Shown: piece after piece, positions 59,678 to 59,797 of the stretch
Layout: each line of letters opens with the position of its first letter
Numbering within the stretch: the first letter of the stretch is position 1
Source of the DNA: a virus
Direction: 5' to 3' (one strand)
Length of the DNA: 64,000 nt
IMG/VR virus record: IMGVR_UViG_3300034105_003151
Location: 1 to 64,000 of that record
Position numbers and translations under genes: made by a program
Notes under the pieces: model-generated
Seen by the model: only the letters and a program-made list of their open reading frames with translations
Told to the model about the DNA's origin: nothing
Databases searched by the model: none

Positions 59678-59797
59678 AAATCGGAGGCGAAAGGTAATCG
59701 CTAGAGCAATGAGTAACTGATGCTAGGTGTGTCGTTGTCCAATAAAATCATTTATTAGGAAACATCAGTGTGCGGGGTTCGATTCCCCGCCCGATTT
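59678..59797 (+). ncRNA. tRNA-like element C (D and T arms, expanded non-anticodon middle)
   Basis: AAATCGG/CCGATTT stem, GGCGA-AAGGTAA-TCGCT D arm, GCGGGG-TTCGATT-CCCCGC T arm, ACTGATG/CATCAGT helix enclosing an AATAAA/TTTATT hairpin. Confidence 0.65.

Follow-up and report, generated by a model that had tools for sequence, protein, structure and literature searches.

A disabled tRNA scaffold behind the ssb gene of a phage as a possible 3'-end module of the ssb transcript

Introduction

Transfer RNA-like folds can mark the ends of other RNAs. In plant mitochondria, RNase P cuts at tRNA-like folds known as t-elements and thereby forms the 3' end of the upstream mRNA (PMC1920247). At the 3' end of MALAT1, RNase P likewise forms the upstream 3' end and frees the tRNA-like mascRNA (PMC8457004, PMC4824109). 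YrlA, a Y RNA of bacteria and phages with a tRNA-like domain, mimics the D arm, T arm, and acceptor of a tRNA without decoding; its version with a 7-bp acceptor is cut by RNase P and receives CCA, and the RNA ends in a stem that binds Ro60 (PMC4201824). The 7-bp acceptor stem is a major determinant for RNase P, and the stack formed by the elbow and the acceptor is read by this enzyme as well as by RNase Z and the CCA-adding enzyme (PMC4201824, PMC4919913). In the literature that we searched, this strategy of ending an mRNA with a tRNA-like fold is known from mitochondria and MALAT1, and we found no phage paper describing it.

Here we analyse a tRNA-like element of 120 nt, element C (59678-59797, + strand), which starts 9 nt past the stop codon of ssb and ends 32 nt before the ATG of a glycosyltransferase (GT) gene in a phage genome. 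The phage record comprises 151,300 bp and was rated complete by CheckV (IMG/VR); positions refer to the window, the whole stretch of DNA that was analysed, which is the first 64 kb of this record. With class-I tRNAs (RF00005), element C shares the top half, namely a 7-bp acceptor, a D arm with a GG and with the equivalents of A14, G18, G19, and A21, and the T loop UUCGAUU, which fits the UUCRANY pattern and has the G53-C61 pair. It also shares the 4-nt spacing of the variable loop, and it encodes no CCA, as is the case for the phage's own tRNAs. It differs from class-I tRNAs in several respects: the D arm and the anticodon stem are separated by 13 nt where a tRNA has 1 nt, the T stem has 6 bp, position 8 is A, and where a 5-bp anticodon stem would close an anticodon loop of 7 nt, the loop measures 40 nt.

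The tRNA-like domain of tmRNA is characterised by a G3-U70 alanine identity, a tag reading frame, and pseudoknots. In element C the 3-70 pair is A-U and there is no tag frame, and ARAGORN and Rfam identify the real tmRNA of the phage at 8785-9138; a tmRNA-like reading was thus discarded. In contrast to YrlA (RF02553), whose gene neighbours Ro60, element C ends at its acceptor. No TROVE/Ro60 domain (PF05731) was found in the 151-kb genome, where positive controls were detected, and Rfam gave no YrlA match, so that the Y-RNA reading suggested in a first-pass annotation of this DNA fails.

Results

Genomic setting and anatomy of element C

The + strand genes around the element are, in order, dnaE-N, an RNase T-like exonuclease gene, dnaE-C, ssb, and GT. 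The N part of DNA polymerase III alpha, with the PHP domain and the polymerase core, is encoded at 54862-56754, and the C part, with the finger, HHH, and OB domains, at 57620-59191; the exonuclease gene (56931-57632) lies between the two. The C part of this split polymerase (54862-59191) is conserved in >200 viral contigs. A sigma-70-like promoter, TTGACA and TACTAT separated by 16 nt (59188-59215), precedes ssb (59255-59668, stop codon 59666-59668), which encodes a protein of 137 aa matching Pfam SSB. No promoter was found between the ssb stop and element C. The conserved downstream neighbour is a group-1 glycosyltransferase gene at 59830-61470; a GTG at 59770, in frame with GT, was rejected as its start because the relatives align from the ATG at 59830. 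ARAGORN identified 26 tRNAs and one tmRNA in the 151-kb genome. The tmRNA (8785-9138, tag GETQLALAA) and a tRNA-Leu(CAA) (11454-11538) are each flanked singly by protein genes, well away from the two tRNA arrays at 118-127 kb, and neither is followed by a U-run. A search of the genome revealed no gene for a CCA-adding enzyme, RtcB, or Pth.

Every part of element C described in the first-pass annotation was found at its place. The 5' strand of the acceptor stem, AAAUCGG (59678-59684), forms seven of seven Watson-Crick pairs with the 3' strand CCGAUUU (59791-59797), and position 8 is A instead of U. The D arm GGCGA-AAGGUAA-UCGCU (59686-59702) has a 5-bp stem and a 7-nt loop. It is followed by a linker of 13 nt, AGAGCAAUGAGUA (59703-59715), with ten purines, and by a helix, here called helix B, in which ACUGAUG (59716-59722) and CAUCAGU (59763-59769) form 7 Watson-Crick pairs. 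The expanded loop closed by helix B (CU...AAA, 59723-59762) includes a 33-nt insert with an AU-rich hairpin at 59739-59759. A GU spacer (59770-59771), equivalent to the variable loop, leads to the T arm GCGGGG-UUCGAUU-CCCCGC (59772-59790), whose six stem pairs are all GC and whose loop has 7 nt. The stack of acceptor and T stem accordingly measures 13 bp (7+6) against the usual 12. The discriminator C (59798), which is followed by UUAUCU, and the U/C-rich trailer CUUAUCUAAC extend to 59807. All 18 base pairs of the top half and the conserved bases of the D and T loops are intact, and both lesions lie in the lower half. As a separate observation, AAAUC-like stretches at 59678-59684, 59696-59702, and 59745-59751 are each able to pair with CCGAUUU; the second and third were chosen as alternative acceptors by ARAGORN and by the family model R2 described below, and such repeats could arise by chance in an AU-rich sequence.

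tRNA calls, chance expectation, and folding

ARAGORN gave no tRNA call at element C, with or without intron search or at a lowered threshold, and Rfam gave no match on it at the gathering score, which agrees with the first-pass expectation that these programs would yield no clean tRNA. At E<=10, the sole Rfam match was that of 17 nt of the T arm to mascRNA. We scanned the genome for tRNA-like top halves, defined by a T loop and a T stem next to a 7-bp acceptor that closes 95-220 nt. Three long matches were obtained in the 151-kb genome against 0.22 expected in shuffles, and with the further requirement of a GG-bearing D arm the expectation fell to 0.03 per shuffled genome. The tRNA top half of element C is not a product of chance.

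The fold of the whole element is better than that of its shuffles (z = -2.6), and the middle alone folds no better than shuffles (z = -0.41). A 7-bp Watson-Crick helix arises in 9.6% of shuffles of the middle. The minimum free energy (MFE) fold pairs element positions 29-35 with 55-61 (59706-59712/59732-59738) in competition with helix B and reaches -36.3 kcal/mol, 2.4 kcal/mol better than the -33.9 kcal/mol of the fold with helix B. A pseudoknot of helix B with this competing helix, which is sterically conceivable, was set aside as unsupported, and a hammerhead reading of CUGAUG...GAAA was rejected because the core is incomplete and misplaced.

Two insertions in the lower half of a tRNA

We removed every internal segment of 15-74 nt from element C and ran ARAGORN on each of the resulting 2010 constructs. 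Four of them gave calls, all on a weak alternative acceptor (5 of 7 pairs) formed from the 3' strand of the D arm. A single intron in element C is therefore excluded, because no single deletion ever restores a tRNA on the real acceptor. The loss of decoding claimed in the first-pass annotation is borne out, and the case that it had named as refuting, a spliceable intron yielding a canonical tRNA, did not materialise by single excision. When the linker was shortened by 11-14 nt and the large loop by exactly 33 nt at the same time, on the other hand, ARAGORN did make tRNA calls. The restored tRNA uses the real D arm and, but for a shift of one base (element positions 2-8), essentially the real acceptor. 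Helix B becomes the anticodon stem, the loop ends CU...AA fall on positions 32-33 and 37-38, and the four bases preceding the T stem amount to a canonical variable loop of 4 nt. Given this canonical spacing to the T stem, an accidental origin of helix B is far less likely than the bare frequency of 10% would imply.

Element C is a class-I tRNA scaffold whose lower half has taken up two insertions, one of about 12 nt, which accounts for most of the 13-nt linker relative to a cloverleaf, and one of 33 nt, and it has no usable anticodon. The first-pass annotation had described an intact elbow enclosing an unrelated middle domain. The elbow and the acceptor half are indeed intact, whereas the rescue by two excisions identifies the middle as a former anticodon stem with a 33-nt insert and a linker insert of ~12 nt. 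We found no similarity between element C and the 26 tRNAs of the phage itself, nor between the middle or its loop and any repeat or other part of the genome. Neither a donor tRNA nor an attB-like copy was present in 185,579 GTDB species genomes, and no donor was found in IMG/VR. An attP reading was dropped, as there was no attB-like copy in the GTDB genomes and no integrase was seen.

The terminator slot behind ssb

The order dnaE-C, ssb, and GT is kept in about 75-80 relatives, whose DnaE-C proteins are 52-59% identical to that of the phage. Their ssb-GT spacers measure 19-106 nt. Of 59 distinct spacer sequences, 55 contain a GC hairpin followed by a T-rich tail, and this hairpin, of 5-8 bp, ends 12-48 nt (median 25) before the GT start. 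The promoter motif TTGAC..TAnnnT precedes ssb in 53 of 56 distinct relatives, and because the ssb promoter is present here as well, we take the ancestral unit to consist of promoter, ssb, and terminator. In our phage, the T arm with the tail CCGAUUUCUU is the best terminator-like site of the region 57-64 kb, and no other terminator is left at ssb. The distance from the T arm to the GT start is 39 nt and falls within the range of 12-48 nt observed for the relatives.

In canonical intrinsic terminators, a U-tract of 7-9 nt directly follows the hairpin (PMC3993855). The T arm offers the GC-rich hairpin of such a terminator (59772-59790, 6 GC pairs, 7-nt loop), and CCG separates this hairpin from the U-rich tract. 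The tail CCGAUUUCUU passes a loose terminator scan, which asks for 5 T in 8 nt within 2 nt of the stem, its first three bases not being U. Judged from these sequence comparisons, the tRNA-derived element C stands in the place of the lost ssb terminator. An alignment of the spacer with L122 gave no further information. In four relatives (L085, L106, L107, and L109; ~7020-8220), the GT match is interrupted by ~1.2 kb between residues 328 and 326, which suggests an inserted element such as an intron, an intein, or a homing-endonuclease gene.

Distribution and strain variation

An exact 26-mer search of IMG/VR recovered only one other copy of element C, on a near-identical contig of 25 kb that is present in both IMG/VR and JGI. 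Gapped patterns spanning the D arm to the T loop gave only chance matches beside ordinary tRNAs in IMG/VR, and blastn against 50,697 phage records returned T-arm fragments only. A covariance model built from the single sequence, R1, matched element C alone in the window; among 48 whole records of relatives, 14 of them >=90% complete, it gave two weak matches without a T arm. By the top-half scanner, a tRNA-like top half is absent from 108 related loci, and such an element is absent from four complete relatives. The ssb loci of the relatives have no tRNA or tRNA-like top half within 4 kb, and the normal tRNA that the first-pass annotation had considered as a refuting finding at this locus is carried by none of them. 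Relatives at 62-72% SSB identity were found by an SSB search, and the two closest relatives from the JGI metagenomes, identified through the SSB alignment at 62-63% identity, have plain hairpins at the locus. In a relative from a lake run, <90% identical, the stretch from within ssb to the GT start is 87 nt shorter. Among the collections searched, element C is confined to one phage species.

The phage was found in lake-water runs of some 16 studies, and no RNA runs are listed among the sequencing runs containing the stretch. Element C is unchanged in contigs of four lake-water runs, with the exception of one haplotype (a contig of run X8) carrying G>A at 59770, an unpaired spacer base; no other natural variant of the element was observed. 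In the 32-nt spacer to GT, the same haplotype shows two events, one substitution and one insertion of 2 nt, against one change in the 120 nt of element C, and it has six substitutions in the 320 nt beyond that spacer. The strain variation is compatible with constraint on element C and is far too little to show it.

Other tRNA-like RNAs in the clade

The rIIB-like gene of the phage (14823-15656) allows a second slot to be compared with the relatives, in which a conserved tRNA-like RNA directly follows this gene (L125:2102-2184, L126:2089-2170, L127:2071-2153, L140:19628-19707, and L165:13789-13870 (-)). This rIIB-downstream RNA of 80-83 nt has a 7-bp acceptor starting with AA, a GG-bearing stemless linker without any D stem, a 13-bp hairpin replacing the anticodon arm, a 6-bp T stem, and a U-run. 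In alignment A5 of the five distinct sequences, 96.9% of cells pair, and compensatory changes occur in 10 of 26 pairs; five of the six T-stem pairs covary, the sixth pair being among them. In the same slot, the relative L130 has a canonical tRNA-Gly(UCC) followed immediately by TTTTT, ~150-230 nt after its position 499. This tRNA indicates that tRNA genes and tRNA-like elements replace each other in the rIIB-downstream slot, and the family as a whole argues that non-decoding tRNA-type modules at gene 3' ends are selected in this clade while their slots turn over.

Two more tRNA-like elements, A and B, lie behind the phage's own rIIB-like gene (15667-15838). Element A (15667-15727, ~61 nt) contains the same GGCGA/UCGCU hairpin as element C, with a weak similarity (z = 2.8), and element B, of 100 nt, has a canonical T arm and a U-run. 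[quoted passage not shown] Membership of element C in the rIIB-downstream family (A5/R2) was rejected, as there is no full-length match and no sequence homology. Element C nevertheless shares the design of this family: both are non-decoding, begin a 7-bp acceptor with AA, have a 6-bp T stem and a U-rich trailer, and follow a protein gene. The family differs in having no D stem and a single 13-bp hairpin in the middle. Separately, a complete relative (L139; G009:C1:106690-106775) contains acceptor, D, and T arms around a 37-nt pyrimidine-rich unstructured middle without an anticodon.

Discussion

The explanation that we consider best, and put forward tentatively as somewhat short of probable, is that element C might serve the ssb transcription unit as a 3'-end module, derived from a tRNA but unable to decode, that is cut out by the tRNA enzymes of the host. 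Its ancestor is a class-I tRNA gene that took up 33 nt in the anticodon loop and about 12 nt behind the D arm and retained the top half of acceptor, T arm, and D arm. From its position, element C would form the tail of the ssb mRNA, its transcription starting at the ssb promoter. The GC-rich T arm together with the U-rich acceptor 3' strand and trailer could then pause or release the polymerase near the discriminator, and a release 7-9 nt past the T-arm hairpin would place the transcript end at the last acceptor base or at the discriminator. Host RNase P would cut 9 nt past the ssb stop, with 3' trimming and CCA addition following, so that the ssb mRNA would be separated from a stable tRNA-shaped RNA of 120 nt. 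Excision by host enzymes is the most economical mechanism because the intact elbow and the 7-bp acceptor are what those enzymes read. Processing by enzymes that measure the elbow is not assured, however, given A8 and the 13-bp stack of acceptor and T stem. Among the roles named in the first-pass annotation, an RNase P/Z processing signal best fits the context of the ssb-terminator slot, whereas the Y-RNA role does not hold. Counted in favour of the 3'-end module are the perfect top half, the two-excision rescue, the conserved cassette with its terminator slot and its own promoter, the rIIB parallel, and the unchanged sequence in several lake studies with a lone variant at an unpaired base. Against it count the lack of any homologue, the imperfect U-tract, A8, the 13-bp stack, and the middle without a fold signal, and also the thin strain data, with 1 change in 120 nt.

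Element C might instead be an inert relic, a tRNA gene that landed behind ssb and was disabled by two insertions, with a T arm that happens to terminate passably. The occurrence in one phage species and in none of the relatives examined, the two disabling insertions, the A at position 8, and a middle folding no better than shuffles would all be expected of a relic. We regard this as rather unlikely, since all 18 of the 18 top-half pairs and the conserved loop bases are intact with both lesions confined to the lower half, and since the ancestral terminator is gone, so that element C must at least supply the terminator function; moreover, 120 nt of junk would rarely be retained inside a conserved phage cassette. 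The intact elbow and acceptor with abolished decoding could also belong to a tRNA mimic acting in trans, in which a CCA-tailed top half would titrate a host factor that reads the elbow or acceptor, for example a toxin that modifies or cuts tRNA 3' ends, and the position behind ssb would only provide strong early expression. The conserved strong promoter predicted to drive element C and the further anticodon-less tRNA-like RNAs in the genome, together with the covarying one in the clade, are consistent with such a role. There is, however, no partner gene nearby, the phage encodes no Ro60, CCA-adding enzyme, RtcB, or Pth, and the element occurs in a single lineage. By the established identity rules, no aminoacylation identity is recognisable (A3-U70; C73 without G-1). 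A decoy for anticodon nucleases, in particular, is unlikely because element C has no anticodon loop to offer them. Taken together, we judge a mimic acting in trans to be unlikely.

A working tRNA from which the insertions are spliced out is extremely improbable. The loop ends CU...AA do resemble positions 32-33 and 37-38, and two excisions lead to an ARAGORN call, but two separate excisions would be needed, as a single one never restores the real acceptor with the D arm, and the phage already has tRNAs for the amino acids. To our knowledge, the known tRNA introns of bacteria and phages are group I introns hundreds of nt long, which also argues against splicing here. An extension combining termination with an action in trans is conceivable and, in our estimation, quite improbable: element C could be a self-terminating cassette end at which the polymerase stops at the discriminator and RNase P severs the transcript, the CCA-tailed RNA would sponge a host factor targeting acceptor ends, and tRNA-type genes would be interchangeable with terminators in this clade.

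If the 3'-end module reading is correct, the phage has put a disabled tRNA in the place of an ordinary terminator and borrows the tRNA-processing enzymes of its host for forming the end of an mRNA. This reading would also account for the failure of gene finders to pick up such elements and for the occurrence of tRNA-like RNAs behind protein genes in this clade. The case stands out in that the exchange of a terminator for an element of tRNA shape can be demonstrated, and its value is that of a clear, testable example from a single lineage rather than of a demonstrated mechanism.

With the intrinsic terminator of the ssb cassette in its relatives, element C has in common the slot, a GC-rich hairpin, and a similar spacing from the start codon that follows. 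It differs in that the loop of its hairpin reads as a T loop, in that this hairpin is part of a tRNA fold of 120 nt, and in that its U-rich tract begins 3 nt past the hairpin. Like t-elements and mascRNA, element C is a non-decoding tRNA-like fold placed right after the functional part of another RNA. Those systems are eukaryotic or organellar and have been mapped experimentally, whereas element C belongs to a phage of a bacterial host, occupies a terminator slot, and is known from its sequence. Of the known systems, t-elements and mascRNA are those that element C would most likely resemble in its working.
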